A stretch of 48,261 nucleotides of DNA from a virus. The translations under genes and the position numbers were made by a program. Positions 8,016 to 25,632 of this stretch are shown here, piece by piece. How positions within the stretch are numbered: the stretch's first letter is position 1; every line of letters begins with the position of its first letter. The DNA is taken from positions 1-48,261 of the IMG/VR virus record IMGVR_UViG_3300045988_064045; one strand, given 5' to 3'. The notes under the pieces were generated by a model. It searched no databases. It saw only the letters and a program-made list of their open reading frames with translations, and had not been told where the DNA came from.

Positions 8016-8373
8016 CCTTTCCCTCTTTCACAAGCAAGAATGCCATCAAAGCAGACTTTGCTTCTATGTCATACAGTGTCTCCGCGACGACCATGCTCAG
8101 ATACCCCTGAGGGACACTAGCTCTATTACAGAAGGTCCTCATGTACGAGAAAGTGTTATCACCCCTATTGGTGATCCTGATGGCATCTGGTAGCATCTGG
8201 TACTTTCTGGACGTACACTGGACGAAGTTCTCTACCAAGTCTATGTCTGGACGACCTTCACAGTCCGTTTTTAATATCTTCTTCAGGAAGTTGTACCCCA
8301 AAGTCTTGTACTCTGGTTCTTTCTCCCAGTCAGATTCACAGACTTCTTTGATCTTGTCTTCTCGTCTACCCAT
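7948..8373 (-). CDS. hypothetical protein (141 aa)
   Basis: ORF in the gene chain; no recognisable motifs. Confidence 0.35.
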   Translation of the reverse strand: MGRREDKIKEVCESDWEKEPEYKTLGYNFLKKILKTDCEGRPDIDLVENFVQCTSRKYQMLPDAIRITNRGDNTFSYMRTFCNRASVPQGYLSMVVAETLYDIEAKSALMAFLLVKEGKVVARQHADNYNPTIYGLHRWSL

Positions 8374-8822
8374 CAGATACCAGTGCTTCCGTAACCGTTC
8401 TCGCCACGGTCAGACATCGTCATGCTGTCAACTTTGACTACATCACCAGTCGTGTACGGGACCATGATGATCTGGGCAATGCGGTCACCCTTGTAGAAAC
8501 AAATGTTGTGACCTGTGTTGTTCATGAAAGTAGCACCGAGTTCTCCTCGGAAGCCAGAGTCGACAATGCCGACACCGTGAGTCAGACCAATGCCTTTCTT
8601 GCCAAGACCAGAACGACCAGCAAGAAGCCCGAAGTAACCGTCTGGTATCTCGAGCGCAATACCGAACGAGATGAACTTGTAACTGTGTGGCATTATCGTG
8701 ACGTTCTCTGCACACTTCAGATCAAAGCCTGCGTCACCGAGATGAGCTCGACTCGGCTCGAACAGATCTGGGTTCGGGTAGTCTAGACCCTTGCCTTTCG
8801 GCATCCACTTCAAGTCCATCAT
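8373..8822 (-). CDS. dut: dUTP diphosphatase (trimeric dUTPase)
   Basis: Motifs AGFDL, LLAGRSGLG, GIVDSGFRGE and C-terminal RGENGYGSTG. Confidence 0.85.
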   Translation of the reverse strand: MMDLKWMPKGKGLDYPNPDLFEPSRAHLGDAGFDLKCAENVTIMPHSYKFISFGIALEIPDGYFGLLAGRSGLGKKGIGLTHGVGIVDSGFRGELGATFMNNTGHNICFYKGDRIAQIIMVPYTTGDVVKVDSMTMSDRGENGYGSTGI

Positions 8823-9424
8823 TTCACCTTCGTGTTATCACGGTTGTCATCATACATCTGGATCAGATCCGGCTCGTACTCTCTGACACAGTCATGCATC
8901 TTGACAGCCAGTTCTCGGACCTCCCACTGAGCATTATTGCCAAGACGAAGGTCAAAGAAGTGGAACAGCTCCCTGAAGTTAGTCGTCACCATCAAGTTAG
9001 TCTTAGTTGCTTCTGGGAGATAGAACCTCGCGTCCTCTGGTTTGAAACCAGCTTCAAGAGCAGCTTTGTACTCACGAGCACATGTCTGCATATGCTCACG
9101 GAAGTCTTCTTCGAAGTCCTTGACTCCATTGATCTCGGGAGGCACCACGTACCAGTCGTCACCAGAGAAGTTATATTTAATATACCGCTGGCTTTCTTGA
9201 CAGAAGCTCATCAGACGATGACGTACGAGTTGGTGTGAACATGCACGGGAGATACCGGAGATCTTGAACTGCACCTGAGCATGTTCTAGGATCGAAGTGT
9301 GTCCTACACCGTAACAAGACCGGATCCTCTTCAACGAGACGTCGTCTTTACCGTAACAGAGACCTGCTGCCAGACTGATCTGAGCTATCGGATCTGAACT
9401 GATGCTCACAATCTGTACTTCCAT
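8819..9424 (-). CDS. thyX: flavin-dependent thymidylate synthase ThyX
   Basis: ThyX signature RHRxxSxxxxSxR is present as LVRHRLMSFCQESQRY. Confidence 0.8.
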   Translation of the reverse strand: MEVQIVSISSDPIAQISLAAGLCYGKDDVSLKRIRSCYGVGHTSILEHAQVQFKISGISRACSHQLVRHRLMSFCQESQRYIKYNFSGDDWYVVPPEINGVKDFEEDFREHMQTCAREYKAALEAGFKPEDARFYLPEATKTNLMVTTNFRELFHFFDLRLGNNAQWEVRELAVKMHDCVREYEPDLIQMYDDNRDNTKVK

Positions 9425-13115: not shown

Positions 13116-13733
13116 CTATTCAATGGGCTTCAACACGGCTGGATCACATCTCACCAGGCATTGGGAGATAGCCATGGCATCACAGACATTGTCGTCGATG
13201 TGCAACTTCTTTCCAGACTTAGACATGAACGTGCCCTTGTTCTTACGCTTGGACTTGACTTCTGATATGAAACTGCTCTTCATGTGTTTCTGTGTCCGCA
13301 TTGCCCATTCTACAGTCGGGAACTTGTTCTCATTGACACCATACGAGTTCTGAGCTGGCTTGTTTGAACCAACCACTGCTGACTTCCAAGCGCGTGTGTC
13401 GACTGTGTAGACTGGGATAGACGGGAACTTAGACTTGACTGTGTCTTCGATAGACCCGTTCAATGACCCAGTAGCACGGATGTAGGAGATGCCGAGATTG
13501 TTCTGCGAGAAAGTCCGCATCCTCTCGTACACGACTGCATCTGGACTGTACTCATCCAGAAGCCTTATTAAAACTGCAGATACTGCTGCACGCTTCTCCC
13601 ACTTCTTCTTGCACGAGGAGAAGTCAACTGCTTCAGCATGGACTACCTTCATGCCCCTTGATACTGCGACAGCAGTCTCGGTGTAAGACTGGTCGATACC
13701 GATACAGACTATGTCAGATGTAGATCCCATCAT
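13116..13733 (-). CDS. ruvC: RuvC-family Holliday-junction resolvase
   Basis: N-terminal DIVCIGIDQSYTETAVAV (catalytic Asp region) and C-terminal DDNVCDAMAISQC (terminal catalytic Asp motif). The track's N-terminal MSSGGLIERI is a translation of the palindromic element; the likely start is MMGSTSD. Confidence 0.65.
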   Translation of the reverse strand: MMGSTSDIVCIGIDQSYTETAVAVSRGMKVVHAEAVDFSSCKKKWEKRAAVSAVLIRLLDEYSPDAVVYERMRTFSQNNLGISYIRATGSLNGSIEDTVKSKFPSIPVYTVDTRAWKSAVVGSNKPAQNSYGVNENKFPTVEWAMRTQKHMKSSFISEVKSKRKNKGTFMSKSGKKLHIDDNVCDAMAISQCLVRCDPAVLKPIE

Positions 13734-13752
13734 GATCCTTTCTATGAGGCCA

Positions 13753-13767
13753 CCAGATGACATCTGG
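13753..13767. promoter_or_regulatory. 15-bp palindrome CCAGATGACATCTGG (copy 2 of 3) between the candidate promoter and the RBS of the RuvC-like gene
   Basis: Perfect 7-1-7 inverted repeat, embedded in a larger near-palindrome GAGGtCCAGATGtCATCTGGtgGCCTC. Confidence 0.5.
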
Positions 13768-13851: not shown

Positions 13852-14676
13852 CTATAGACGGACACGCCCACCAGGTAGACCCCAACAACTGTCTTGGCAG
13901 GGGCAAGTCTTACATCTCTTGCAAGTAGGAGACTTTGCATCAGATGGACGTGAGACGAGTTTATGGTCATCGACTAGACGACGGTAAGCCCAGACAATCT
14001 GCTCAGCACGGTCAATGAATGGAGCTACTAGCTTGGGGTCATAGTCATAGACCTCAATCCTGAACTCCTGACTGTTCTTGTCGTCAGATAGGACGAAGCC
14101 CTTGTGGATGCCAGTCAAATGCATGTACCACTGGCACTGCTTCCAAGCTGAGGGATGCTTGGTCTGTTTTTTAAAAGAGAAGGTGTTGACTGACTTGATC
14201 TCACCGACCATAAGACCGTCATAGAACTCGGGGACACGACAGATGATGTCTGGAGTGTAGGACATCATGTACTTGTCGGAGAACTGTGTGTTGTCTAGCT
14301 GGTCCCATGTAGAATAGCCAGCACGGATCAGAAGTCTCTGCCACTTCTCATGGACTGCGTTGCCCTCTTCAAAGATCCTCATCAAGCCGATTGAAGTCTG
14401 TTCTCCTTGCTTCATGTGGTAGACAAGTGAGAGGACTTGCTGCCTGCAACAGAACGAGTTCTCAGATACCAACATCGCACTAGCATGGAGACCGACTCGC
14501 TCCTGAGACTCAGCACCTCGAGTCATCACATTACGTAGGAACTTGACTTCATTCTCGATATCTTTGTCAAGGTAGAACATCTTGTTGAAGATGTGGGCCA
14601 ACTTCTCAGCTTCACTAGTCTGAACAACTATCTTCTTCGAAGCAGCCTGTTTTTTAATATCGTCTACTACACCCAT
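13852..14676 (-). CDS. Cas4/RecB-like PD-(D/E)xK exonuclease with C-terminal 4-Cys (Fe-S) cluster
   Basis: C-terminal CKRCKTCPCQDSC cluster. Central ...DIICR...GEIKS...QCQWYMHL region is typical of RecB-family nuclease cores. Sits in a recombination module beside the RecA-like gene. Confidence 0.55.
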   Translation of the reverse strand: MGVVDDIKKQAASKKIVVQTSEAEKLAHIFNKMFYLDKDIENEVKFLRNVMTRGAESQERVGLHASAMLVSENSFCCRQQVLSLVYHMKQGEQTSIGLMRIFEEGNAVHEKWQRLLIRAGYSTWDQLDNTQFSDKYMMSYTPDIICRVPEFYDGLMVGEIKSVNTFSFKKQTKHPSAWKQCQWYMHLTGIHKGFVLSDDKNSQEFRIEVYDYDPKLVAPFIDRAEQIVWAYRRLVDDHKLVSRPSDAKSPTCKRCKTCPCQDSCWGLPGGRVRL

Positions 14677-15507
14677 CTACTCACAACCTTTCTGGAACCA
14701 GACTCCTACGAGAGCCAGATGGCCCTCAAGCTGTTCCATGTCAATCGAACTCACTTCTTCTAAGTCAGTACCCCAACTGTGCCTGATGACTTTGTTCTCG
14801 TACTTCTTCGGGATGCACATGTCATCAAGACCGTAACAGCTTCTGGCGACACGCCTTGCTTGGCGTTCAGACATTGCCCCTGACTCCATCAACAACATCA
14901 CTGCTTCTTCTGGGTCCATGTCCTGGTCTAGAAGCTCAGGAGACAGACACATGTAAGACGAGATGCTGGCCAACTTGACTCCCAACTGCCCCGAGAACAA
15001 TCTCCTCAATTGTGGGATGTGCTCAGCAAGTTCTTCTGGAGTCGGAGTCGGGTACCATCTGAAACTGCCTGCATTCGGGAAGTTCTTGACCTTCTCACCA
15101 CAACATTCTAGACAGACAAGATCATACCTCTTCTTTGCTTCAAAGCTTGTGCAATGGTCCCAGACCAAGTTTGACAAGATCGCGTCCATCGGCTCCAACT
15201 TTAGCAAGTGGGCTCTGTCGACGTTCTCGTGTACTGGCATCGGGAACTTAGAAGACATCCTCGGGATCTGCGTGTAGTCGTAAGACAAGTCGAGATAGTT
15301 GAACCAATAGTCAAAGAACCCGTCTTCCTTGCCAGACACACAGAGTCTGTTCTTGCCTGACTGGAACATGCGGACCAGCTTCTTACCAGACTTGACAAAG
15401 TAGGAGAATGAGTCTGATACAGGACTGTACCGGCGAGTCCAAGAAAAGCACTGCTTTGACTTGAACGTGTCGTCAAGTGAGAAGCCCGGCACCTCTATAC
15501 ACATCAT
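14677..15507 (-). CDS. hypothetical protein; weak HhH-like segment (EEAVMLLMESGAMSERQARRVARSCYGLDD)
   Basis: 276 aa. Resembles HhH-GPD glycosylases only at motif level, so low confidence. Confidence 0.25.
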   Translation of the reverse strand: MMCIEVPGFSLDDTFKSKQCFSWTRRYSPVSDSFSYFVKSGKKLVRMFQSGKNRLCVSGKEDGFFDYWFNYLDLSYDYTQIPRMSSKFPMPVHENVDRAHLLKLEPMDAILSNLVWDHCTSFEAKKRYDLVCLECCGEKVKNFPNAGSFRWYPTPTPEELAEHIPQLRRLFSGQLGVKLASISSYMCLSPELLDQDMDPEEAVMLLMESGAMSERQARRVARSCYGLDDMCIPKKYENKVIRHSWGTDLEEVSSIDMEQLEGHLALVGVWFQKGCE

Positions 15508-15737
15508 CTCGGGTGCCTTTCTCGATAGGTAGCAGCACGTTTGATGTAGGTATCTGCTTTGTCAAGGTCTTCATCAGCAGATTCTCCCACTTTAGACCCT
15601 GCACGGTACCTGTACTTCCATGCGCACAGAGCATAGTAGGACTTCACCATCTCCTCGGGGAACACTGCTTCCATCTCGTCCCAGCATTCCATCGGATGGA
15701 CTTTGTAGTGGTCGGGATCTTGCTTACTCATCTCCAA
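15504..15737 (-). CDS. DUF3310-like small phage protein
   Basis: HYKVHPMECWDEME ... YALCAWKYRYRAGSK ... DLDKADTYI is the pattern I associate with DUF3310. Confidence 0.45.
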   Translation of the reverse strand: MEMSKQDPDHYKVHPMECWDEMEAVFPEEMVKSYYALCAWKYRYRAGSKVGESADEDLDKADTYIKRAATYRERHPR

Positions 15738-16674
15738 CTGCCTCCATGTCTTTCTTAGTCACACGCCTTCCGAACTGCTCAGCCCTAGCCTTCATCAGTT
15801 CCTTCCTGATAGGTTGGACATCATCAAAGGAGACGAAGCCACGGTCAAAGAAAAGCGGGACGATGCACTCTCCGTACGGGTTGCACACCTTAGACTTCGT
15901 GACCTTGAACTTCATCAGAAGTCCGACCCTCTCGTTAGCAGCACTGTTGCGCGGGTCTTTGTTCGGGATCTCGATCCACTGGCGACGAGCAACTTGTATT
16001 CGAAGTGAACAGGCGTGTTTCAGCTTGTGTCCACCGGGTGTGTCTGTCTTCTCGCCGAATGCCATGGCGTTCATCTTGTCTCGGACTTGGTTGATGAAGA
16101 TCAACGTGGTGCCAGACTGCTCCAAGGCTATCTCTATGGGAGGGAGGTACTTTGTCAACAGACGGGGAATACCACCGATCCTGAACTCCTCGATCGAATC
16201 ATGACTTGCAGCTTTCTCGATCTTCTCCGCGTCATCTTTGGGGAACAGAGACGGGACTGAGTCGATGCCGATGATCGGGATACCAGCTCTAGCAAACTTC
16301 AATGTCTTGTTCATGGCGTCTTCACCATACTTGGCTCTGTACACGAGAAGTTGCTTCGGCCTGTTCCCGAAGACCTTAGCACGGTCAGCGTCAAAAGTAC
16401 CCTCAACTGGGATGTCCAATGCGAGTTGGTGGAGACCCATCAGATGGTAGAGTAATGTAGTCTTACCACTTGACTCAGCTCCATAGATCTCGACTACTCG
16501 TCCCTCCGGCATACCACCACCTATGATCGCGTCAAGGTCTTCGATGCCAGTAGACCATCTCTTGATGTCAAGGTTGGCATGCTTTGAACCTAGGGAATAG
16601 ACTGTGCCCTCACCTTCCTTCTTGTTGATGTCAGCGCACAACTTCATGATTGCTTCTTTGTCTGTCTTCGGCAT
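15724..16674 (-). CDS. RecA-family recombinase (UvsX/Sak4-like ATPase)
   Basis: [23 protein letters not shown] matches RecA [24 protein letters not shown]. The track N-terminus is spurious; the start is ATG 16674 (MPKTDKEAI) with GGAAGGAAG RBS. Confidence 0.75.
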   Translation of the reverse strand: [316 protein letters not shown]

Positions 16675-16735
16675 CTTCTTCCTTCCTTCTAGACAGGAAA
16701 GGGGCCAGCCCCTAGTTTGGAGCCAGCCCCTAGTA

Positions 16736-16906
16736 TCACATGTAGATGTAGTAGTCAGCGAGGGAATCAGGGTCTGCTGTGACCCATTTAGCCATGCTGG
16801 TGTTGTATGGATAGTCACCGTAGTAACCGTCGAAGACCTCAAGCCCGTCCATGTAGATCACGACTATTGACTCAGGGTCTATCTCAGGTATCATGTCTAT
16901 ACTCAT
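16736..16906 (-). CDS. small hypothetical protein (56 aa)
   Basis: AGGAGGCAAA-ATG at 16906 (MSIDMIPEID...); downstream of promoter j. Confidence 0.4.
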   Translation of the reverse strand: MSIDMIPEIDPESIVVIYMDGLEVFDGYYGDYPYNTSMAKWVTADPDSLADYYIYM

Positions 16907-17098: not shown

Positions 17099-19840
17099 CT
17101 AAGACCTAGCCATGAGCGATGAATTGTATTTAGTCACACCGGATATGTAGATTGACTTGTTGAACTGGAGAGCACCTGCTTCATGAAGAGCGTCAATCAC
17201 GCGGGAGGTGACCAGACGAGACTTGCATCTATCATAGAAGTCGTCATATGAACGGAAGACTCCGTTCTTGTCTCGCTCTTCCTTGATCTGTACGCAAGCT
17301 TTCTCGCCTACGTTCTTGATCGTAGATAGACCAAGTTGGATCACCTTCTCACCTTCCATCTTCCTGAGCTTAGTCTTGGGGTCTGACCAATTGACATGAG
17401 GCAGGAAGATAATCGAACCATCTGCTACAGCAAAAGACTGGAAGCGACCCATCTCTGAGTCATCCCTCGCGTACTTTAGCTTGGAGAACCAGTACTCGTT
17501 CGGGAAGTAAGTTTTGTAGAACATTTCTTCCATGGAGATCAAACTGTAACCGACTGAATGACCCTTATTAAAAGTGTAAGTCGTCATCTTCTCGAACAGG
17601 TCTGTAGAAGCTTCTTTGTCAAAGCCGTTCTTGACTGAGCCCTCGATGAACTTCTTGAAAAGCTCGTCCCTCATCTCATTGTAGAGACGCTGTGCTGACT
17701 CAGTCATGTGCGAGCCCTTCATCATCTTCATGACCTTGTCTGCATCTTGCCAGTCCATACCAGCCAAGTTGACACATATCCTCTGGACTTGCTCCTGATA
17801 GATAATCGTACCATACGACTCTGAAGTCTCGTTGTAGTAGTACAGCTTCTCAGCTTCATCCCTGTTGTACTTGTTCATCGCGTACATCTCAGGCTGACCA
17901 GTACTAAGAGGACCAGGTCGATTCATTGCAGACGCTGCTACAACGTCATTGAACGAGTCACAGTTGATCTGAGAAAGGATGTTACGTGCCGTAGGTTTCT
18001 CGAACTGGAAGACTCCATCAGTCCTACCCTCACGGAAGTTAGTCAACATTTTCTCGTCATTTACGATCTCGGTGTAGTCTACTGTGATTCCTGTCTCCTT
18101 GCGAAGATCTCCGATTGACTCCATCGTCTTCAGACCAAGGATGTCGAACTTGATCACGTTGATAGACTCGATATCTTCTAGATCGTACGAAGTGTAGACG
18201 TCACCTTTGGAATCTACTTTCAATGCGGTGTAGTCAAGAATGTTACCACCTGTGATAGCAACACCTGCTGCATGAGTACCGATGAAACGCACTTTCTTGT
18301 AGAGCTTCGAGAAGTGTGCTAAGATGTTGTCGTACTTCTTGTTGTACTGGATGCCCTGCGGAGAACTAAGCATACCTTCTGCATCTAGAACTGCAGTCGC
18401 GCCGTCGATATACCTGTTGACAAACTTCTTGATCTCAGCAAGTGTCTTTTTGTCCATCTTCAAGTCGTACTCGCCTTTGTCGTTCAAGACTTCAACTTGA
18501 AGACCACACACTTTAGCAAGATCATTCAGAAGGTTGTCAACTTTGTAAAGACCGTAAGAACAGATTCTAGCTGCGTGTCCCTCGTACTTCTTACAAAGGT
18601 ACTCTATCACCTCATGTCGACGAGAAGTCTCGAAGTCAAGATCGACATCTGGAAAGTTCTTCTTGTCTTTGCGCAAGAACCTTCGGAAGTCAAGTCCGAA
18701 GAACAAGCTGTCAACTTCTGTGATCTTCAATGCATATGCAACTAAGCAGTTACAGACCGAGCCTCGACCTGGCCCAACCTGAATACCATGGTCCTTAGCC
18801 CAGTTCGTGTAGTCAGCTACGATCAAGAAGTAGTCCTCGAAGTGGTGATATTTAATAACTTCAAGTTCTTCTTTGCATCTCTCAATGTATTCTTTCCTGT
18901 ACTTGCCTCTATCTTTGAGACCTTTTTTGACATTAGCAAGAAGAAGCTTCCAGGAATCCGTCTTACCGTCGTCAATCTTAGGAAGGACCAGTGGAAGATC
19001 TTTCAGATAGTCATCTTCACACTTCGCCTCGATCTCGTCGAGGTTTGCATACATCTCCTTCGCGAGTCTCTTCGCGTTGCCTGGCTTCAAATCCTTGCCA
19101 TGCATCTTCACGAACCTCATGAACATCTCGTCAGGAGCTGGCATGTACCTCTCAGAGTACGTGTCGACAATGTGGTCCATGTTGTGACCAGCAATCTCAT
19201 GCATCTTGCAGTATGTCGACATGTCATCTCGTCTACCTCGGTGCGAGTCTGAAGTCAAGATCATCTTCCAGCCGTGATGCTTTGACATCTCGATCAACCC
19301 GAGATTGACTTCTTCTTGGACTCCATGATCACTGATCGGATATGGTTGTATCTCGACATACAAGTCTTCACCGAAGATCTTCTCGAGCTCGACAATGAAC
19401 TTCTCAGCTCTTTCCGGATGCCCCTTCAAGATAGCTTGTGAAGAGTAAGAAGCAATACAAGCTGTAGTACAAATCAAACCTTCATGGTACTTCTTCAACA
19501 AAGACAAGTCCCAGATCGGATTGTAGTACTTTTGCTTGTCACCTTCAAACTGGATGCGGTTCAAGTTGCCGTAGCCTTTGAGGTTCTTCGCGATCAAGAT
19601 CAGGTGGTAGCCTCGCGTCTTCTCCTTGTACTTTGGGAGGATGTATCCCTCGACACCGAGGATAGGCTTTATGCCTTCGACTTTACAAGCTTCATAAGTC
19701 TGGATGAGACCATTCGTGTTACCATGGTTAGTCGTGCAAAGAGACTTGTAACCGAGTTCCTTAGCCAAAGCTGCAAGTTCAGTTGCTTTCCCGTACCCGT
19801 CGAAAGTCGAGTACTCGTCGTGGCGATGCAGATCAAACAT
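17099..19840 (-). CDS. dnaE: DNA polymerase III alpha-type replicative polymerase (DnaE-like, PHP domain + Pol III core)
   Basis: N-terminal PHP HRHDEYSTFDG...TNHGN. Core motif GPGRGSVCNCLVAYALKITEVDSLFFGLDFRRFL. 913 aa. Confidence 0.8.
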   Translation of the reverse strand: MFDLHRHDEYSTFDGYGKATELAALAKELGYKSLCTTNHGNTNGLIQTYEACKVEGIKPILGVEGYILPKYKEKTRGYHLILIAKNLKGYGNLNRIQFEGDKQKYYNPIWDLSLLKKYHEGLICTTACIASYSSQAILKGHPERAEKFIVELEKIFGEDLYVEIQPYPISDHGVQEEVNLGLIEMSKHHGWKMILTSDSHRGRRDDMSTYCKMHEIAGHNMDHIVDTYSERYMPAPDEMFMRFVKMHGKDLKPGNAKRLAKEMYANLDEIEAKCEDDYLKDLPLVLPKIDDGKTDSWKLLLANVKKGLKDRGKYRKEYIERCKEELEVIKYHHFEDYFLIVADYTNWAKDHGIQVGPGRGSVCNCLVAYALKITEVDSLFFGLDFRRFLRKDKKNFPDVDLDFETSRRHEVIEYLCKKYEGHAARICSYGLYKVDNLLNDLAKVCGLQVEVLNDKGEYDLKMDKKTLAEIKKFVNRYIDGATAVLDAEGMLSSPQGIQYNKKYDNILAHFSKLYKKVRFIGTHAAGVAITGGNILDYTALKVDSKGDVYTSYDLEDIESINVIKFDILGLKTMESIGDLRKETGITVDYTEIVNDEKMLTNFREGRTDGVFQFEKPTARNILSQINCDSFNDVVAASAMNRPGPLSTGQPEMYAMNKYNRDEAEKLYYYNETSESYGTIIYQEQVQRICVNLAGMDWQDADKVMKMMKGSHMTESAQRLYNEMRDELFKKFIEGSVKNGFDKEASTDLFEKMTTYTFNKGHSVGYSLISMEEMFYKTYFPNEYWFSKLKYARDDSEMGRFQSFAVADGSIIFLPHVNWSDPKTKLRKMEGEKVIQLGLSTIKNVGEKACVQIKEERDKNGVFRSYDDFYDRCKSRLVTSRVIDALHEAGALQFNKSIYISGVTKYNSSLMARS

Positions 19841-20544
19841 TACTCAGCCTCTTCTTCACGCTTCTTACCGAGCTCATAGTCGCGACGGTAGAGATGGAGT
19901 GAACCTGCGATATGCGTGTAAGTACCAAGGTCAACTCCGAGTTCCATTGCCATCAACATCTGCATGAACGTGAACTGGAACACATCAAACGGGAAGCCCA
20001 TCCAAAGATCATTAGACCTCATGTATGTCGTCATGTATAGCTTGCAATCACGGATGAAGAACTGAAGTGACACAGTACAGTTGACGTCCTTAGAAGGCGT
20101 GTCCCTTGGCTCCTTGATGTGGATCACTGCTTGACGAGAATCAGGATGCTTCCTGAGCAAGTCAACGACATAGTCCCACTGGTCAAAGCCGTACTTCTCC
20201 TTGATGCAATAGCCATAGTTGGAGTTCACGTTCTTACCGTCGTCCGAGAACCTCTCCCATGCTTTCGTGATCAAACCGATTGAATGGAGATCCCTCTTGC
20301 CACTGAGATACCAAGCGAGTTCACCGACCGTGTACCTGACCGACATCTTCCTGATGGGATTACTCATGAAGTTGCGAGTCGGATCATTTATGATGGTGAT
20401 TGCATTCAAGAACTCGCCGACAACTTCTCCGTCTCGAGAATCTAGCTGCTCTTCTTCAGCACCAGTAGAAAGAAGATCCCACCAGAACTTGAAAGCCTCG
20501 TCTGCCGTCTGTGCTCTGCAGATAATTCCAAGTTGATTGAACAT
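19840..20544 (-). CDS. ThyA-family pyrimidine C5-hydroxymethylase/methylase; Asp at the Asn177-equivalent position suggests dCMP hydroxymethylase
   Basis: Aligns to the E. coli ThyA C-terminal half. Nucleophile Cys present in NCTVSLQFF (PCH region), then RSNDLWMGFPFDVFQF...GTYTHIAGSLHLY. PFD replaces ThyA PFN. Only 234 aa, the size of phage dCMP hydroxymethylases rather than ThyA. A separate ThyX is present. Confidence 0.6.
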   Translation of the reverse strand: MFNQLGIICRAQTADEAFKFWWDLLSTGAEEEQLDSRDGEVVGEFLNAITIINDPTRNFMSNPIRKMSVRYTVGELAWYLSGKRDLHSIGLITKAWERFSDDGKNVNSNYGYCIKEKYGFDQWDYVVDLLRKHPDSRQAVIHIKEPRDTPSKDVNCTVSLQFFIRDCKLYMTTYMRSNDLWMGFPFDVFQFTFMQMLMAMELGVDLGTYTHIAGSLHLYRRDYELGKKREEEAE

Positions 20545-21743
20545 TACATTGACCTCTTCTGATACTCGAGCTCGTAGATGAACTTATGATAGTCATGCAT
20601 CCTGCCAAGACGAAGGCGAAGATATTTAATAACCTTCTCGCGAAGTTCAAGATTGTTGAACACGAAACACTTGCCAACGACGTCGGCTTTGTTCCTCACA
20701 GTCAACAGTGAAGCATACTTGCCAGCATAGTTCTTGATGAGGTCTTCGCCATAGTCTGCAATGAACAACGGGACGCACGAGTAAGTAACTGCTTCAAGTA
20801 CTCTTGCTGTCATGAACTTGTACTTACAGTAACTTGCTTTCGCGAACAAGATAGTAGTCTCAGCCTTCGAGTAAGTCTTGAACATGTCTGCCGTCTGAAG
20901 CCTTGGACCAAAGTTGATGTTTGGCCACGTCTCAGCAGAATCACGTCCGCCTTCAAGCCAGTTTCCATATACCTTCGTGTCGGCAAGTCCGTCTGGCCAA
21001 TACTGGTCTATGCACCAGTCCCTCTCGTAACGGTTGCCGACATAGACGAGAGAGTCTTCAATCCAGTTTTCGTCAGAGATGACTGGAAGTTCTTCAATAG
21101 CTTCTTTACTGAAGGGAATTGCCACTTTGACAGACTTGATGTCTTCGATAGCTTTCCACCTGTCTCCAAGTTCTACTACACAGAAGTTGAGACCAAGTTC
21201 TTTCAGTCTCTTTGCTTCAGAGTAAGAAAGCTTGTAGTCAAGATCGAAGATGAAAAGCGGCACGTTGTTATAGAGGCAATACAAGATGATGCAGTACTGA
21301 ATGTATACATCTGGTTGCCAAGAAGCACCTAGGCGATCTTTGGAGTCATAGTCATTCCTACCCTTAATATCCATCCTCCATTCATGCAGAATGAATTCTG
21401 GGGCCTCTTGTAGCTTCTCGTCAAACTTTCTGGTAATGTCGTTCATAGACATTTTACTTACATCATCAATGTAGTCAACCTTCGAAGTCCTGAGGTAAGC
21501 TTTCTCGCGATCACTTCCGGCGAAAGCTTTGAAGTCTTCACTACCGAGAGACTCATAAGCCGGCTTGTCACGGTCTGGCATAAGTTGGACGACATCATAT
21601 CCGGCTTCCTGAAGACCATTGATGATAGCCCACGAATAGAAAGCGTTCCCGTCTGGCGTGCTCACAAGATTCTTCTTGTTGTCCATCTTGTAGTCCCCTA
21701 GGAAGCCCCAAAAACTGTAACCTACTTTTGGCATTCTTACCAC
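20544..21743 (-). CDS. GT-B-like glycosyltransferase, putative hydroxymethyl-base DNA glycosyltransferase (paralog 1, 399 aa)
   Basis: Motif-level resemblance to T4 beta-glucosyltransferase (YVGNRYERD; MTARVLEAVTYSCVPLFIAD versus ITLRVWETMASDAVMLID, recalled from memory). Paralogous to the next gene. Sits adjacent to the hydroxymethylase. Confidence 0.35.
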   Translation of the reverse strand: MVRMPKVGYSFWGFLGDYKMDNKKNLVSTPDGNAFYSWAIINGLQEAGYDVVQLMPDRDKPAYESLGSEDFKAFAGSDREKAYLRTSKVDYIDDVSKMSMNDITRKFDEKLQEAPEFILHEWRMDIKGRNDYDSKDRLGASWQPDVYIQYCIILYCLYNNVPLFIFDLDYKLSYSEAKRLKELGLNFCVVELGDRWKAIEDIKSVKVAIPFSKEAIEELPVISDENWIEDSLVYVGNRYERDWCIDQYWPDGLADTKVYGNWLEGGRDSAETWPNINFGPRLQTADMFKTYSKAETTILFAKASYCKYKFMTARVLEAVTYSCVPLFIADYGEDLIKNYAGKYASLLTVRNKADVVGKCFVFNNLELREKVIKYLRLRLGRMHDYHKFIYELEYQKRSM

Positions 21744-22825
21744 TCCTTCTTGTTCCAGTATGATCTCACACTGCCAATATCTGTGAGCTTCTGCATTGAC
21801 TCAGATTCTTTGATAGCCTTAAGGACTTCTGAACTCTTTGAGCAAAAGTCTTTGTCCTTAAGCTTACTTTCTATCTCGTAGAATCCGTCTACCAGAAGCT
21901 CTGATTTGATTATATCATAGATATCTGGGAAAGACTTCTCAATTTCAGACAAATTACAAGACCTGAAGACATACGGTAGACAATTGCACCATACTGCTTC
22001 ACAGAATCTCTGCCAACTAAAAGTAGCAGGATTGTACGAGGGGATCACTGCTGTAGCTTTTGACGATGCCAACAAGGCGAAGTAGTCATCCTGCTTTACG
22101 AAAGCTTTCTTGCCCTTGCCCTTCCTGTTAGTATCACACAGGTTGATGTCAAGTGAGCAATTGCTCTCCAAGTCGTCTTTAATGCTTCTCAACCAGTCTC
22201 GACCATTGCCAGAAAGAGAGCAATAGAAAACAAAGTCTTTGTATTTCTCGACTTCATAGAACTTTGACATCTGCTTCCACCTGTAGTTCCAATACGGAGC
22301 TAAGTCATAGTCATCACCATCGACAAAGTAAAGTCGACTGAAGTTTTTAAAATGGAAGATCTGCTCAAGCCTTGCTTCATCCGGATCAATCACGTAGTGG
22401 TACACATGATCACAGATACTAGAAGCTACATCAACTAACGTCAGAAAGAAGTAGAAGTTCTTCATTGATACGTAATTGAAAGCGTATTGGTCGTTCTCCT
22501 TGTCGAAGAATTTGCCACCGACACTGCAGTCATTGTAGTTGAAGTTAGAATAGATAGGAAGTTTCATCAACAACAATGTTGAGATGTCTTCTTTCTCCAA
22601 GATGTCTTTAGCTTGTTTCCTAGCATCCTTCCAGCCTGTGATATCATCTGGAGTAAACTTGACTGAGCGGAAGCAACAACTTCTAGCAAGCTTGTCAGAC
22701 TTATACTTGTCAATCAAAACGAAGTCTTCATTTGGAAGAAAGTCAGTCAAAGACTCAACTAAGAACTTGACTACATTGTCATTGCTAGTAGCCATGTTGC
22801 CTGCAAGAAAGACACCTACTGACAT
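21737..22825 (-). CDS. GT-B-like glycosyltransferase paralog 2 (362 aa)
   Basis: Shares GNGRDW and R..EAV...C.P blocks with the 399-aa neighbour. Confidence 0.3.
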   Translation of the reverse strand: MSVGVFLAGNMATSNDNVVKFLVESLTDFLPNEDFVLIDKYKSDKLARSCCFRSVKFTPDDITGWKDARKQAKDILEKEDISTLLLMKLPIYSNFNYNDCSVGGKFFDKENDQYAFNYVSMKNFYFFLTLVDVASSICDHVYHYVIDPDEARLEQIFHFKNFSRLYFVDGDDYDLAPYWNYRWKQMSKFYEVEKYKDFVFYCSLSGNGRDWLRSIKDDLESNCSLDINLCDTNRKGKGKKAFVKQDDYFALLASSKATAVIPSYNPATFSWQRFCEAVWCNCLPYVFRSCNLSEIEKSFPDIYDIIKSELLVDGFYEIESKLKDKDFCSKSSEVLKAIKESESMQKLTDIGSVRSYWNKKEW

Positions 22826-23376
22826 TTGTTCGCGTCCTCCAGCCTAGGCTCCATAACCATGTTCTCATTCAATGAATAGAACTTCCTAGCAGCTTCTTCA
22901 ACTTCACGATCGATGTCATCAAACTCGATCCTAGTAGAAGCAATAGGAGACATAAGGAATGCAGCGTCCATTGTCTTGTAGTGCAAAGACAAGTCACGAC
23001 CATCCATAGCAGAAGCGCGTGCCGGTCCTTTCCTGTCGAACATGTAGTACATAAAGACGTGCTGACGCATATTTAATAAACGATCTTCAATCTTTCCGAG
23101 ATTAGCAAGTGCATCTTTGTAGATGTAGTTCCTGTCGATAAGACCATACGTGAAGTCAGTCAGGTGGAACCGGTCAAAGATCATTGGGGAGTTAGTCAAG
23201 TCAAGAATGTTCAGCATCTTCAACATCTTGTCAGTCTCGTTCGGACTGTCCATCCAATTGCCAAGGTCTACTGTCGTAGCATCATCATGATAGACTGGAA
23301 CCCCAATCCATTCAGAAAGCTTGTTAGCAAATGTAGACTTGCCCATCCTGTCAATGCCTTCAACTATGTAGATCAT
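22816..23376 (-). CDS. P-loop deoxynucleoside-monophosphate kinase (thymidylate-kinase-like)
   Basis: IYIVEGIDRMGKST matches the Tmk P-loop (FEGIDGSGKST). The likely start is the internal MIYIV. Confidence 0.55.
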   Translation of the reverse strand: MIYIVEGIDRMGKSTFANKLSEWIGVPVYHDDATTVDLGNWMDSPNETDKMLKMLNILDLTNSPMIFDRFHLTDFTYGLIDRNYIYKDALANLGKIEDRLLNMRQHVFMYYMFDRKGPARASAMDGRDLSLHYKTMDAAFLMSPIASTRIEFDDIDREVEEAARKFYSLNENMVMEPRLEDANKCQ

Positions 23377-23433
23377 CTGATCTCCATTTCTATAAAGACA
23401 AAGGGAAGCCTTTCGGCTTCCCCTCATCATTGA

Positions 23434-23802
23434 TTACTTGCAAGTAGATTCGATCCTGTCAGAGACAACCTTGAGCTTTTTCTCAATTGCCTCTGCCATG
23501 TCTGACGAATCAAACCCAGAATACAAGCACATATTCATCCAGACGATGAAGCAATCTGCTAGTTCGTCCTTCTTGTTAGCTGAGTCACACTTCTCGTTCC
23601 TGAAGTTTTTCCAACGCTTGTCAGCTTCAAGCACTTCACCGATCTCAGAGACAAGCTGTTGCACATGATAACTGCAAAGTTTAGGATCATCTACCGGAAG
23701 CACAGAGTCTTTGTCGATGCTTGAAAAGTCATCATACATACCACTAGAAAGAAGCTTCTCCTGATTAGAAGCTTGCTGACCAAACATAGATTCGAACGTC
23801 AT
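23434..23802 (-). CDS. all-alpha NTP pyrophosphohydrolase (MazG/dimeric-dUTPase/dCTPase-like)
   Basis: LVSEIGEVLEADKRW...EKCDSANKKDELADCFIVWMNM fits the E-x-x-E ... E-x-x-D metal-binding pattern of MazG-like enzymes. Confidence 0.45.
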   Translation of the reverse strand: MTFESMFGQQASNQEKLLSSGMYDDFSSIDKDSVLPVDDPKLCSYHVQQLVSEIGEVLEADKRWKNFRNEKCDSANKKDELADCFIVWMNMCLYSGFDSSDMAEAIEKKLKVVSDRIESTCK

Positions 23803-23827: not shown

Positions 23828-24634
23828 TTACTCGTCCCAGTCATCAGAATCGGGATCTCCGCCCTCTTCATCATCCCAGTCGTCTTCATCGCCCCAGTCA
23901 TCATTTGCCTTGTCATCCTCAAGAAGAAGATTGATGTAGAACGCTGCAGGTTTTTTAATAACTGCTTCGATGCCTCGTTCCTTACAGAGCTTGTAAAGCT
24001 CCTTTGCGGACTTGCCATCATACTCAGAAGAGTCCATGAGCTCGTCGTCATCATTGACTACGCGATTGAACTCATCGAGCTTCTCGTTCGTGTTGCCCAT
24101 GTACTTGTCAGTGTCAGGATAAGCTTCACGGAGGATCTTAAGGACGGCCTGCTTGGAGTAGGGCTTTGCCTTCGTGTTCTTGAACTTCTGCTTGTCCATA
24201 GGCATCACAGTGAAGGTCTTGTCAATACCCTTGCCGACCTGGGTGATGATGATGTCACGATCACAGAGAGTACCATAGTTCTCATAGATCGCAGCAAGTT
24301 GAGCAAGAGGAGAACAACGAGTCACTGCGAACATGAACAGAAGGACTTTGTTCTCGTCGTAGTCATACACAGACCAACAATAGTGAGTCTTAGAACGGAA
24401 GCCAGAATCAGGATCCTCTGCCTGCTCACAAAGTTCACAAGTCTTACCATAATGCTCGGAGCACACTGCCGTGATCCGCTTTTCCCAGTTGGAGTGGATG
24501 TTGATCTCCAGACCATCCTCCATGTCATTGAGGAAGCGGAGACGCTTCTTCGTACCATCACGGAAGTATACCAACTTCTGCTTGTTGGAGCCGGTCCTCT
24601 GAATGTCGCTCTTGATGCTGTCGAGAAGTCCCAT
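23828..24634 (-). CDS. hypothetical replication-associated protein with Cys cluster, C-terminal HeH/SAP-like module and long DDW acidic tail
   Basis: CSEHYGKTCELC cluster. C-terminus YDGKSAKELYKLCKERGIEAVIKKPAAFYINLLLEDD...DDWGDEDDWDDEEGGDPDSDDWDE. Confidence 0.4.
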   Translation of the reverse strand: MGLLDSIKSDIQRTGSNKQKLVYFRDGTKKRLRFLNDMEDGLEINIHSNWEKRITAVCSEHYGKTCELCEQAEDPDSGFRSKTHYCWSVYDYDENKVLLFMFAVTRCSPLAQLAAIYENYGTLCDRDIIITQVGKGIDKTFTVMPMDKQKFKNTKAKPYSKQAVLKILREAYPDTDKYMGNTNEKLDEFNRVVNDDDELMDSSEYDGKSAKELYKLCKERGIEAVIKKPAAFYINLLLEDDKANDDWGDEDDWDDEEGGDPDSDDWDE

Positions 24635-25632
24635 TACTTCACCTTTCTACTTTGACGATAATCACGCATCGTCCTTTTCCACATCCTGTCGAAAGTCTCC
24701 TGTGTCATGTCTCCTGGATCTTTGATACCCTTCAAGTACCTCATCCTAGTGACATTGAAGTCTTTTCTAAGACACTCCGTCCCCTTCCTTCCACACTCAT
24801 CATTGTCTAATGCGGAGACTAGATTCATTATACCACAGTCAAACAACTTTTGCTTCTGGTTTTCTGACATTTTCCATCCGAACAAAGCAACTACGTTCTT
24901 GACTCCAAACTGAAGAAACTTCAATCTGTCCATGAACCCTTCGACAACAACTACGTAGTCATCTCGTTCGTCTCCGAATCTCCCATAGTCGCCTACTAAG
25001 CAGTTAGACCTTCTGAAGCCTTTGTTGTAAAGATACTTCCTGTATGAAGCAGTTTCAGGATCATCTGTCCTGGACACCCAACCTTTGAACTTGCCATTGT
25101 CAAGTATCGGGAAGATCAACTGGTACGGGTCTCTGTAAGTCACCTTTGCTTTGACTTCCGCCAAAGTCTCGGGACCAAACCCTCTATCCTTCATATAAGA
25201 AGCTATCCTGATCTCCTCAGGTGTCTCAGGTGACATCCAGTCGACTTTACGGAGACCATGGTATAGATCATAGGCCTGAACATAAAGTTGCCTCTGAGAG
25301 GATCTGGTAGCCTCTGGGCACTGCTTAGAATATGATGGAAGCTCAGACTTCACTGTGCCATTGACTATCTTCTGGAACAGTACTAGCTCTTCAAGTGAGT
25401 TGAGGTTCCTCTTCATTCCCTCCATCTTCTTCATGAAGGTGAAAGCATCACCTCGAGCACCGCACCCGAAACAATAGAACTCACCAGACTCATAGTCAAC
25501 TTTCATTGACGGGTTCCTGTCAGGATGGAACGGACAGACTATCTTGTCTTGTCTAGAATAGATCCTATCTGCCAACCCGTAATGAAGTATCACTGCTGCG
25601 AGCTGATCGCCTTTTGACTTACTCGGTTCCAT
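24634..25632 (-). CDS. dnaG: DNA primase (DnaG-type: CHC2 zinc finger + Toprim)
   Basis: CPFHPDRNPSMKV...CFGCGARGD (CHC2). Toprim region VVVVEGFMD...LDNDECGRKG. Confidence 0.75.
   Translation of the reverse strand: MEPSKSKGDQLAAVILHYGLADRIYSRQDKIVCPFHPDRNPSMKVDYESGEFYCFGCGARGDAFTFMKKMEGMKRNLNSLEELVLFQKIVNGTVKSELPSYSKQCPEATRSSQRQLYVQAYDLYHGLRKVDWMSPETPEEIRIASYMKDRGFGPETLAEVKAKVTYRDPYQLIFPILDNGKFKGWVSRTDDPETASYRKYLYNKGFRRSNCLVGDYGRFGDERDDYVVVVEGFMDRLKFLQFGVKNVVALFGWKMSENQKQKLFDCGIMNLVSALDNDECGRKGTECLRKDFNVTRMRYLKGIKDPGDMTQETFDRMWKRTMRDYRQSRKVK

Follow-up and report, generated by a model that had tools for sequence, protein, structure and literature searches.

Replacement of cytosine by sugar-decorated 5-hydroxymethylcytosine is a known anti-restriction strategy, and in T4 the glucosyl-hydroxymethylcytosine pathway comprises the gp56 dCTPase, the gp42 dCMP hydroxymethylase, the gp1 dNMP kinase, alpha-GT and beta-GT. 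The Enterococcus siphophages VPE25 and VFW have cytosine-modified DNA and carry b-gt together with a ThyA homolog related to the one described here; for VPE25, bisulfite resistance and modification at cytosine were shown experimentally (PMC4999554). Phages RB69, DLP3 and RL38JI possess glycosylated 5-hydroxycytosine clusters (PMC13326640), in which the ThyA homologs bear D169N, use flavin and yield 5-hydroxy-dCMP. Moreover, GT-B genes beside ThyS homologs are described as common in metaviromes in the part of a recent survey considered here (bioRxiv 10.1101/2023.12.21.572611). Since VPE25/VFW and metavirome surveys already show such modules, the preliminary description of the present locus overstated its case in calling it unusual outside T4-like myoviruses.

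The window, i.e. the whole stretch of 48,261 nucleotides analysed here, contains a segment that is probably a pre-replicative cytosine-replacement and DNA-glycosylation operon. All five module genes proposed earlier are present on the minus strand at their expected positions, and are listed here with their context:

8373..8822, minus strand: dUTPase gene, context (Pfam dUTPase, 9e-30)
8819..9424, minus strand: ThyX gene, context (Pfam Thy1, 1.4e-56)
17099..19840, minus strand: DnaE-type DNA polymerase III alpha gene, 913 aa (TIGR00594)
19840..20544, minus strand: ThyA-family enzyme gene, 234 aa; predicted folate-dependent dCMP 5-hydroxymethylase
20544..21743, minus strand: GT1, GT-B glycosyltransferase gene, 399 aa as ORF from GTG; conserved, presumably base-proximal DNA glycosyltransferase
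21737..22825, minus strand: GT2, GT-B glycosyltransferase gene, 362 aa; accessory or second sugar transferase
22816..23430, minus strand: YorR/thymidylate-kinase-type P-loop nucleotide kinase gene, 204 aa as ORF (ORF call)
23434..23802, minus strand: MazG-like all-alpha NTP pyrophosphohydrolase gene, 122 aa (ORF call)
23828..24634, minus strand: SSB-like protein gene, context (PHROG SSB, 3e-8)
24634..25632, minus strand: DnaG-type primase gene, context (Pfam Zn_ribbon_DnaG + Toprim)

The five module genes are tightly coupled, with start and stop codons that overlap within the window, and are flanked by the SSB/primase genes and by DnaE. GT1 and the ThyA homolog are strict neighbours with a 1-nt overlap, the start of DnaE overlaps the stop of the ThyA homolog, and a search for an internal terminator within the module found none. 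Judged from the sequence, GT1 most likely begins at the ATG at 21734 (396 aa), which has an AAGGAG Shine-Dalgarno, and the kinase most likely at 23376 (186 aa); both revised starts agree with those called for a near-identical contig. The DnaE polymerase noted previously is confirmed by a TIGR00594 score of 570 bits (cutoff 434).

About 30 viral contigs, as well as cultured Agathobaculum phages, share the order MazG–kinase–GT1–ThyA homolog–DnaE. In about 30 loci the MazG-like gene directly precedes the kinase, in 30 loci the ThyA homolog directly follows GT1, and in relatives DnaE keeps its place just downstream of the module. The SSB-like and DnaG-type primase genes, syntenic in about 30 loci, lie upstream and belong to this conserved string of replication/modification genes. 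GT2 is a movable accessory whose position varies among relatives. Radical-SAM variants also occur.

The 234-aa protein belongs to PF00303 (E = 5e-29) and its public name is 'thymidylate synthase', while its Agathobaculum phage homolog is named 'deoxyuridylate hydroxymethyltransferase'; family membership and both names would suit a plain thymidylate synthase, or else a dCMP methylase. However, alignment with E. coli ThyA upheld the catalytic Cys and the PFD motif (Asn177->Asp) recognized earlier, and the signature includes E58, W80, Y94, R126, D143, C146, T147, S167, D169, G173, P175, F176, D177, H207 and Y209, with the changes L143->D, H147->T, Q165->M and N177->D and with D169 retained. We compared diagnostic sites by criteria for ThyA-family enzymes from PMC13326640 and PMC5175136, using E. 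coli ThyA, SP-10 dUMP hydroxymethylase, T4 gp42, MilA and RB69 gp48 as controls, and the protein groups with the deoxy, cytosine, hydroxymethyl and folate-type enzymes at every one of them. The same signature is found in every complete neighbouring ThyA homolog among the GT1 loci (n = 32) carrying one. The best thymidylate synthase equivalog gives the protein 81 bits where the cutoff is 327, and it falls far under every NCBIfam thymidylate synthase cutoff. The dUTPase and ThyX previously placed at 8373-9424 are indeed there and form a separate dTMP route, so a second thymidylate synthase is unnecessary; a methyl product would also leave the adjacent glycosyltransferases without an acceptor hydroxyl. 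The match to deoxy-cytosine hydroxymethylases at every diagnostic site speaks strongly against a thymidylate synthase, in line with the earlier judgement, and the broader reading as an ordinary thymidylate synthase or dCMP methylase is hardly credible. The ThyA homolog is instead predicted from its sequence to be a deoxy-cytosine hydroxymethylase, i.e. a dCMP 5-hydroxymethylase.

Among PDB sequences, MilA ranks first (7e-33), followed by thymidylate synthase (1e-20) and the T4 dCH gp42 (3e-14). Bit scores are 163 for the VPE25 homolog, 117 for MilA, 57 for gp42 and 48 for RB69 gp48; Agathobaculum phage gp07 shares 62% identity with the window protein and the VPE25 homolog 45%. A flavin-dependent 5-hydroxy-dCMP synthase like RB69 gp48, with glycosyltransferases that build O-glycosides on 5-hydroxycytosine, would fit the cassette layout (nucleotide kinase, GT, ThyA homolog) seen in RB69, DLP3 and RL38JI, the relatedness of the kinase to RB69 gp45, and the changes L143->D/E and N177->D common to both enzyme classes. 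However, the diagnostic D169N is absent, the folate-site residues W80, G173, P175, F176 and Y209 are all kept here and all lost in RB69 gp48, and gp48 is the weakest reference match; we consider this possibility very improbable.

Both GT1 and GT2 gave confident GT-B structure models. Whether they would fall into unrelated folds had been set as a test beforehand, and T4 beta-GT ranked first or second among the structural matches of each, as the GT-B-like reading had anticipated. Profile-profile comparison with a beta-GT family gave probabilities of 97% and 86.5%, the R...R and RxxE motifs being aligned, and the GT1 HMM detects VPE25 b-gt at 1e-9. Neither protein resembles alpha-GT in sequence. 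Pairwise BLASTP of GT1 against GT2 shows no significant similarity (E = 0.21), and their families are linked by profile-profile comparison only (probability 93.6%, E = 2e-7, ~14% identity, C-terminal half). They are remote homologs rather than recent paralogs, which qualifies the paralogy suggested earlier. Several observations count against the proposed pathway: neither GT reaches a curated GT family cutoff, at the sequence level their N-terminal (acceptor) domains match no DNA GT, lipid- and polysaccharide-acting GT-B enzymes score as high as beta-GT for GT1, and the ORFs scanned contain no gene for sugar-nucleotide synthesis. It is rather improbable that 5-hmC (or another C5 derivative) stays unglycosylated while GT1 and GT2 modify virion proteins, host teichoic acids, receptors or the like, because GT1 adjoins the ThyA homolog in 30 loci and is fused to it in one lineage, both genes lie inside the replication/nucleotide-metabolism string and not among structural or lysis genes, and their profile matches to the beta-GT family are specific.

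Single-sequence matches of the kinase and the MazG-like protein are weak, and both assignments are reinforced by family profiles and motifs. The kinase family profile matches SPbeta YorR (2axp, E = 4.7e-9), yeast Tmk (E = 7e-8) and RB69 gp45, which is the 5hoC-cluster nucleotide kinase (hhalign probability 95.7%); the GKT P-loop and DRF motif are invariant, and PHROG_761 is matched at 5e-10. No chain named deoxynucleoside monophosphate kinase appeared at E <= 1 in the kinase profile search. The dNMP kinase proposed earlier is a P-loop nucleotide kinase, but YorR/Tmk-like and not gp1-like, and we propose that it acts as an hm-dCMP kinase. The MazG-like protein matches Pfam MazG at E = 8e-4 (20.1 bits, below the cutoff of 22) and a PHROG NTP-PPase at 6.5e-6, and shows no significant similarity to T4 gp56, PDB sequences or solved dCTPases. 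Its EXXE...EXXD motif, E53xxE56...E80xxD83, is invariant across 17 syntenic homologs; MazG is matched by 11 of these 17 family members and dUTPase_2 by 9, which strengthens the MazG-like NTPase first suggested.

In the proposed pathway, the MazG-like enzyme would hydrolyse dCTP to dCMP + PPi, thereby supplying substrate and excluding dCTP. The ThyA homolog, as its complete active-site signature predicts, would convert dCMP and methylene-tetrahydrofolate to 5-hydroxymethyl-dCMP, which the YorR/Tmk-like kinase and then host NDP kinase would raise to hm-dCTP. DnaE, the polymerase that would need to accept the modified dNTP, would build it into DNA, and GT1 would move a sugar from a host NDP-sugar to the hydroxymethyl group after replication; GT1 is the invariant partner of the ThyA homolog, and its fold and donor-site motifs are shown. 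GT2, the accessory GT-B enzyme, may add a further sugar or form an alternative linkage, and ordinary dTMP would come from the ThyX and dUTPase encoded elsewhere. The hydroxymethylase product, sugar, linkage and acceptor are all given as we infer them. The core reading, with hm-dCMP synthesis, kinase, MazG pyrophosphatase and beta-GT-type GTs, is supported in silico and holds on all in silico tests run. The C-containing palindromes CATG, GGCC and GTAC are still under-represented, which would be unexpected if all C were protected and counts against the pathway, though as a weak test.

GT1 might instead act straight after the ThyA homolog and glycosylate hm-dCMP as a mononucleotide, with the kinase and DnaE handling a glycosylated nucleotide and GT2 perhaps still acting on DNA. 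The 1-nt overlap of the two strictly adjoining genes would suit such an order, and so would a natural GT1::ThyA-homolog fusion (GT1 N-terminal) found in one lineage from two samples, but the fusion is rare (1 among the 120 homologs listed) and could come from a single indel at the ATGA overlap, with no channeling implied. RB69, DLP3 and RL38JI keep their kinase-GT-ThyA cassette beside a separate gp1-type dNMP kinase; the authors cannot tell whether the substrate of the first glycosylation is the mononucleotide or DNA, and saw no single-GT activity on 5hoC-DNA (PMC13326640), all of which counts for this order. However, the nearest structural and profile relatives of the GTs include the DNA-acting beta-GT. 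We also know of no replicative polymerase shown to incorporate glycosylated dCTP genome-wide, and overall regard glycosylation of the mononucleotide as unlikely.

If glycosylation of 5-hmC in DNA is the correct reading, the phage DNA would be resistant to restriction enzymes and probably to CRISPR nucleases, and a known strategy would here be assembled from mostly uncharacterised enzyme families in an uncultivated ~48-kb phage. The module shares with T4 its logic and predicted set of activities, the diagnostic sites of gp42, and two GT-B enzymes with beta-GT as top or near-top structural match and donor-binding motifs aligned. In contrast, the ThyA homolog stands much closer to MilA and to its VPE25 counterpart than to gp42, the kinase is of the YorR/Tmk type, the MazG-like protein has no significant gp56 match, alpha-GT-like sequences are lacking, and the genes adjoin one another in a single operon beside DnaE, whereas those of T4 are scattered in a genome with a family-B polymerase. 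'T4-like' therefore applies to function, but not to orthology.

MilA is the closest solved sequence relative of the ThyA homolog, and MilA/BcmA CMP 5-hydroxymethylases share D143, C146, D169 and D177 with it; they belong to nucleoside-antibiotic pathway clusters rather than a phage replication module, and the ribose-preference residues Ala176 and Lys133 of MilA are replaced by Ser and Arg, as in deoxy-specific enzymes (PMC5175136). The RB69/DLP3/RL38JI ThyA homologs likewise have MilA as their best structural match, and their clusters have the same order of YorR/Tmk-like nucleotide kinase, GT-B and ThyA homolog (PMC13326640), but D169 and the folate-site residues are retained in the window enzyme, GT1 and GT2 have no sequence similarity to RB69 gp46:47, and NDP-arabinose genes are absent from the window. 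The metavirome ThyS-associated GT-B clusters, read as pre-replicative hypermodification, represent the same general class; that survey is statistical in kind, and the parts considered make no mention of the GT1/GT2/kinase/MazG architecture, the fusion or the radical-SAM variants (bioRxiv 10.1101/2023.12.21.572611). In VPE25/VFW (Andrewesvirinae) the ThyA homolog has an identical signature and lies near a GT-B beta-GT and near DnaE. However, the VPE25 genome is 86-kb, no MazG or YorR-like kinase homolog was found in the region examined, and its GT, with 42% identity, is clearly orthologous to T4 beta-GT, whereas GT1 and GT2 are only remotely related. The closest annotated relatives are the cultured Agathobaculum phages AB434P2 and AB434P3, with a GT2 homolog 28% identical and a very divergent GT1-like gene (7.8e-7). 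They have the same string, which runs SSB-like, MazG, kinase, GT1-like, ThyA homolog, GT2 and DnaE, and their module also encodes a cytidylyltransferase-like and a weak choline-kinase-like protein.

The window is an essentially complete phage genome, and its other genes include those for the small and large terminase, portal, major head protein, endolysin, RecA, a Cas4-like exonuclease, a RuvC-like resolvase and RNase H. The preliminary description had proposed a five-gene DNA-modification module, a phage-encoded DnaE and a separate ThyX and dUTPase at 8373-9424, and the ORFs for all of these were recovered. The layout is as follows, with GT1 and GT2 denoting the two GT-B-like proteins.

Features of the proposed module and of the genes for ordinary dTMP supply
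23434-23802, minus strand, MazG-like protein, 122 aa
22816-23430, minus strand, kinase, 204 aa as ORF (likely start 23376, giving 186 aa)
21737-22825, minus strand, GT2, 362 aa
20544-21743, minus strand, GT1, 399 aa from GTG (likely ATG at 21734, giving 396 aa)
19840-20544, minus strand, ThyA homolog, 234 aa
17099-19840, DnaE, directly downstream of the ThyA homolog
8373-8822, dUTPase
8819-9424, ThyX

An SSB-like gene and a primase lie upstream of the five-gene string. Start and stop codons along it overlap or almost meet (overlaps of 10 nt for kinase/GT2, 1 nt for GT1/ThyA homolog and 1 nt for ThyA homolog/DnaE), and no convincing terminator was found within the string. The longest-ORF starts of GT1 and the kinase are probably wrong. 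The N-termini of homologs and the genes called on an almost identical 49.9-kb contig both point to the ATG, which has an AAGGAG Shine-Dalgarno sequence in front, as the most likely start of GT1, and to 23376 as that of the kinase.

The ThyA homolog, named 'thymidylate synthase' in public records, is a PF00303 protein (E = 5e-29), and its closest PDB sequences are ranked as the CMP 5-hydroxymethylase MilA (7e-33), thymidylate synthase (1e-20) and T4 dCMP hydroxymethylase, gp42 (3e-14). We compared it with enzymes of known specificity at diagnostic sites (E. coli numbering), using the criteria of two earlier studies (PMC13326640 and PMC5175136). The nucleophile Cys146 is present in all reference enzymes and is kept in the window protein. 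At site 143, a hydrophobic Leu excludes water and gives a methyl product, and Asp or Glu allows hydration and gives a hydroxymethyl product; at site 177, Asn selects uracil and Asp selects cytosine (PMC13326640). ThyA accordingly has L143 and the hydroxymethylases D or E, and site 177 is N in ThyA and the SP-10 dUMP hydroxymethylase and D in T4 gp42, MilA and RB69 gp48 (a 5-hydroxy-dCMP synthase); the window protein has D at both. The flavin-dependent 5-hydroxy-dCMP synthases of the RB69 gp48/DLP3 gp80 type carry a D169N signature (PMC13326640), and the window protein has the D found elsewhere. Deoxyribose preference is ascribed to Ser167 and Arg126', and ribonucleotide preference to Ala176 and Lys133 in MilA numbering (PMC5175136). 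Sites 126/167 are K/A in the ribo-preferring MilA and R/S in deoxy enzymes and in the window protein.

Judged by this alignment, the window protein has a deoxy, cytosine, hydroxymethyl and folate-type pattern at every diagnostic site. Its residues at 143, 146, 169 and 177 are identical to those of T4 gp42 and set it apart from the controls, and the same pattern recurs at the 32 GT1 loci with a neighbouring ThyA homolog, without exception wherever that homolog is complete. The Asn177-to-Asp switch and the conserved nucleophile noticed earlier are thus borne out. Since ThyX already supplies dTMP, we predict from the site pattern that the protein is a dCMP 5-hydroxymethylase. An assignment as thymidylate synthase (EC 2.1.1.45), already considered unlikely in the preliminary description, is opposed by N177->D, L143->D and H147->T, and by scores far under every TS cutoff (best NCBIfam TS equivalog 81 bits vs 327). 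A 5-hydroxy-dCMP synthase of the RB69 gp48 type is opposed by D169 and by W80, G173, P175, F176 and Y209, which are kept in the window protein and lost in RB69 gp48. A CMP (ribo) hydroxymethylase of the MilA/BcmA kind is likewise opposed by Ser and Arg at the ribo-preference sites, despite MilA being the best PDB match.

Two further proteins of the string are the kinase and the MazG-like protein. An invariant GKT P-loop and DRF motif (R28, G30, K31, T33, D86 and R87) mark the kinase family, whose profile matches SPβ YorR (4.7e-9) and yeast Tmk (7e-8) in the PDB, as well as RB69 gp45, the 'nucleotide kinase' encoded in the cytosine-hypermodification cluster of RB69 (95.7% probability). The kinase of the DLP3 cluster is YorR-like too. 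By these profile matches the window kinase belongs to the Tmk-like/YorR-like nucleotide kinases, with hm-dCMP as its predicted substrate. The earlier reading as a P-loop dNMP kinase holds in so far as a P-loop nucleotide kinase is concerned, and the 37 PDB sequences that the kinase profile matches at E <= 1 include no chain named deoxynucleoside monophosphate kinase, the name under which T4 gp1 (1dek/1del) is deposited. The metal-binding motif of MazG and the all-alpha NTP pyrophosphohydrolases is EXXE(12-28)EXXD. In the MazG-like protein it takes the form E53-I-G-E56 and E80-L-A-D83, 23 residues apart and invariant in 17 homologs, which supports the all-alpha NTP pyrophosphatase assignment made from the sequence. 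The protein itself scores 20.1 bits against the Pfam MazG cutoff of 22, and its homologs at E < 0.01 match MazG (11/17) and dUTPase_2 (9/17). The family profile gave nothing significant against PDB sequences, and its alignment with T4 gp56 by hhalign was not significant (probability 1.8%), the EXXE/EXXD regions being the part aligned.

GT1 and GT2, both named 'hypothetical' in public annotation, had been described as paralogous. Recent paralogy is ruled out by pairwise BLASTP, which shows no significant similarity (E = 0.21). The two family profiles do align over ~200 C-terminal columns (93.6% probability, E = 2e-7, ~14% identity), hence the proteins are remote homologs. The GT1 family comprises 449 homologs, with no functional name among the matches listed, and an exhaustive HMMER search for GT2 gave 237 cluster representatives. 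Neither protein reaches the cutoff of any Pfam or NCBIfam GT family: window GT1 matches Glyco_trans_1_2 at 1.9e-4, under the curated cutoff, and window GT2 has no Pfam match, with Exostosin_GT47 found in 30/61 and Glyco_trans_1_2 in 15/61 of its relatives. Searched as HMMs against PDB sequences, the two family profiles returned nothing significant, and neither megablast of the module nor tblastn of GT1 found anything among 50,697 phage records.

As modelled, both proteins have a two-domain GT-B fold superposable on T4 beta-glucosyltransferase (beta-GT). The structural matches of GT1 are WlaC (22.9), T4 beta-GT (22.4), T4 alpha-GT (21.1) and the phage HY126 GT (17.7), and those of GT2 are T4 beta-GT (17.7, rank 1), WlaC (15.6), alpha-GT (15.5) and the HY126 GT (14.7). 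Among predicted viral structures, GT1 matches GT-B proteins, including entries named DNA β-glucosyltransferase and SP-15 glycosyltransferases. We also built a beta-GT family alignment of 9 members, drawn from annotated genomes of T4-like, Enterococcus and metagenomic phages; when viral contigs were scanned by pattern for relatives of beta-GT, two Enterococcus phage loci came up and no others. The GT1 family matches this alignment over 184 columns (97.0% probability, E = 9e-11) and the GT2 family with 86.5% probability (E = 4.5e-6), in both cases in the C-terminal domain only, and the GT1 HMM alone matches the b-gt of Enterococcus phage VPE25 (1e-9). Invariant R238/R241 and R314/E317 of GT1, and R209 and R273/E276 of GT2, align with beta-GT R191/R195 and R269/E272, which we take to be UDP-glucose ligands; these roles, and that of Asp100 as the catalytic residue of beta-GT, reportedly come from the structures of Morera et al.

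Comparison by hhalign showed no relation of GT1 or GT2 to T4 alpha-GT, the VPE25 'nucleotide sugar synthetase-like' protein or RB69 gp46/47. Membership in the T4 alpha-glucosyltransferase family is rejected for lack of sequence similarity to alpha-GT. Together, the fold, the beta-GT profile matches and the absence of similarity to alpha-GT and RB69 gp46/47 argue for predicted GT-B enzymes with a donor domain that shows a remote but specific relationship to the DNA β-glucosyltransferases. The two proteins would thus be remote relatives of the beta-GT family and not strict members, and the modelled acceptor domains resemble it at fold level only. Net charge and pI, considered as a hint of DNA binding, gave no useful signal (pI 5.2-9.1 for known DNA GTs; median pI 5.4 for the GT1 family and 8.5 for the GT2 family).

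The distribution of these genes was surveyed in 38 IMG/VR loci fetched with the GT1 profile and two Logan contigs, whose ORFs were scanned with the window proteins. A ThyA homolog lies directly downstream of GT1 in 30 loci and within a few kb of it in two jumbo-phage loci; five very distant GT1 homologs (<=32% identity) have none nearby, and three further loci are truncated. The recurring order is primase, SSB-like, MazG, kinase, [slot], GT1, ThyA homolog, [slot], DnaE. GT2 precedes GT1 in 9 loci, as in the window, follows the ThyA homolog in 11 and is absent from 8 that are complete across the interval. From this distribution we read GT1 as the invariable companion of the predicted hydroxymethylase and GT2 as an accessory. 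On that reading the base-proximal sugar would be added by GT1, and a second sugar or an alternative linkage by GT2.

Other proteins are also found in the slots. For instance, ~15 syntenic loci encode a ~285-aa radical SAM protein between kinase and GT1 (PF04055 at 1e-12, above cutoff; motif CxxxCxxC / CNSxCKTC; L011:6142-7017, L017:5035-5907 and 13 other loci), suggesting further tailoring of the sugar or base within the cassette. A weak GT8-like protein occupies a slot in two loci, and neither protein was found in the window. One relative (L007:13247-14053) encodes FolD, a methylene-THF dehydrogenase/cyclohydrolase, a few kb from its module, consistent with a boosted one-carbon folate supply for hydroxymethylation. 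The kinase is paired with GT1 on 262- and 300-kb contigs (L032 and L035). In a 462-kb uncultured jumbo phage (LR756500.1; 3081-4582 and 5998-7254) a YorR-like kinase immediately precedes a ThyA homolog, and a beta-GT homolog of 26% identity lies ~1.4 kb beyond the latter; hence the kinase-ThyA-GT association spans very different phage types.

On these grounds we consider it likely that hm-dCMP is made and phosphorylated, incorporated by DnaE, and glycosylated as hmC in DNA by GT1 and then GT2. In this model MazG would convert dCTP to dCMP, and the ThyA homolog, as predicted from its signature, would convert dCMP and CH2-THF to hm-dCMP. The kinase and then host NDK would yield hm-dCTP for incorporation by DnaE, and GT1 followed by GT2 would glycosylate the hmC in DNA from host NDP-sugars; no sugar-nucleotide synthesis enzyme was found among the window ORFs scanned. 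The GT-B fold and the donor motifs behind the last step are observed, and the product, sugar, linkage, completeness of C replacement, MazG specificity and glycosylation timing are all predictions. Readings in which the module produces 5-hydroxycytosine, the ThyA homolog is a plain TS or CMP-specific, or the GTs act on something else are disfavoured, since specific tests count against each of them.

The main live alternative concerns the timing of the first sugar transfer. In one lineage, known from two samples as 45-kb phage contigs without GT2, GT1 and the ThyA homolog are fused in frame into a single 613-aa protein with GT1 at the N-terminus (L006:8001-9842 and L007:4661-6502), possibly Rosetta-stone evidence that couples hydroxymethylation with first-sugar transfer. 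This fusion and the strict adjacency of the two genes hint that GT1 might act on an hm-dCMP mononucleotide channelled from the ThyA homolog and not on DNA, and the authors describing the RB69/DLP3 cassette cannot tell mononucleotide- from DNA-level first glycosylation (PMC13326640). However, the fusion is rare and could be a tolerated indel at the ATGA overlap. We regard such channelling as improbable, and it seems just as doubtful that the YorR-like kinase and adjacent DnaE evolved to phosphorylate and polymerise already glycosylated dCTP, as this route would entail.

As a proxy for protected C-containing restriction sites we also used palindrome avoidance, and the outcome was mixed with no useful signal: CGCG is twofold over-represented (z ~6), CATG, CTAG, GTAC and GGCC occur at ~0.66-0.72 of expectation, and GATC, TCGA and AGCT occur at expectation. 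Two other genes of the window may be mentioned here. A 276-aa ORF (14677-15507, minus strand) has a weak match to OGG_N, the 8-oxoguanine DNA glycosylase N-terminal domain (5e-5; 23.9 bits vs cutoff 23), and no PHROG or NCBIfam match; its neighbours are RecA (15724-16842), the Cas4-like exonuclease (13852-14676) and the RuvC-like resolvase (13116-13763). A 913-aa protein (42235-44976, minus strand) has an N-terminus matching head-morphogenesis/minor-head proteins (SPP1 gp7-like) and a long C-terminal extension with weak matches to pilot/ejection and tape-measure families, and may be an ejected internal protein.

If the model is correct, a whole clade of ~40-60-kb uncultivated phages swaps cytosine for glycosylated 5-hmC, and this would matter for escape from restriction and from CRISPR among gut Firmicutes; the host of the nearest cultured relatives is the gut anaerobe Agathobaculum. 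Virome sequencing could then be biased at library preparation, bisulfite treatment or nanopore base-calling. The public names of the key enzyme and both GTs would be corrected, and two large GT-B families, so far uncharacterised and with only a remote link to T4 beta-GT, would become candidate DNA glycosyltransferases. The cassette combines a fixed core (MazG, kinase, GT1, ThyA homolog) with a swappable slot (GT2, radical SAM, GT8-like, cytidylyltransferase), and may therefore represent a library of hmC hypermodifications provided by nature. Whether the first sugar is transferred before or after replication could be approached through the GT1::ThyA fusion. Should the mononucleotide route prove true, it would be the first known route by which phage DNA is glycosylated pre-replicatively, would settle the same question for the homologous RB69/DLP3 cassette, and would make the fusion in the sister lineage a Rosetta-stone signature of coupling.

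This kind of system is well known, with T4 as its paradigm. A relative of the ThyA homolog lies next to a b-gt in the Enterococcus siphophages VPE25 and VFW, whose DNA is bisulfite-resistant, and a kinase-GT-ThyA cassette is known from the 5-hydroxycytosine phages RB69/DLP3 (PMC13326640). Metavirome mining has also found GT-B genes often neighbouring thymidylate-synthase homologs (bioRxiv 10.1101/2023.12.21.572611). The supposed rarity of such modules outside T4-like phages is, to that extent, contradicted by VPE25/VFW and these metavirome neighbourhoods. The closest cultured relatives, Agathobaculum phages AB434P2/AB434P3, have a ThyA homolog 62% and a GT2 28% identical to those of the window. 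They share its gene string and add two genes, one cytidylyltransferase-like (PF01467 at 2e-11, above cutoff) and one weakly choline-kinase-like, which in AB434P2 are gp04-gp05 inside the module (L001:1314-2853), suggesting that AB434P2 makes its own activated donor, possibly not UDP-glucose. What is new is a specific, widespread and unannotated implementation: a predicted hydroxymethylase of the MilA/VPE25 clade, two uncharacterised GT-B families, a YorR-like kinase and MazG, laid out as one operon that is joined to the phage's DnaE replication module in a genome of ~48 kb. Its accessory slot is variable, and a GT::ThyA fusion occurs naturally among its relatives.
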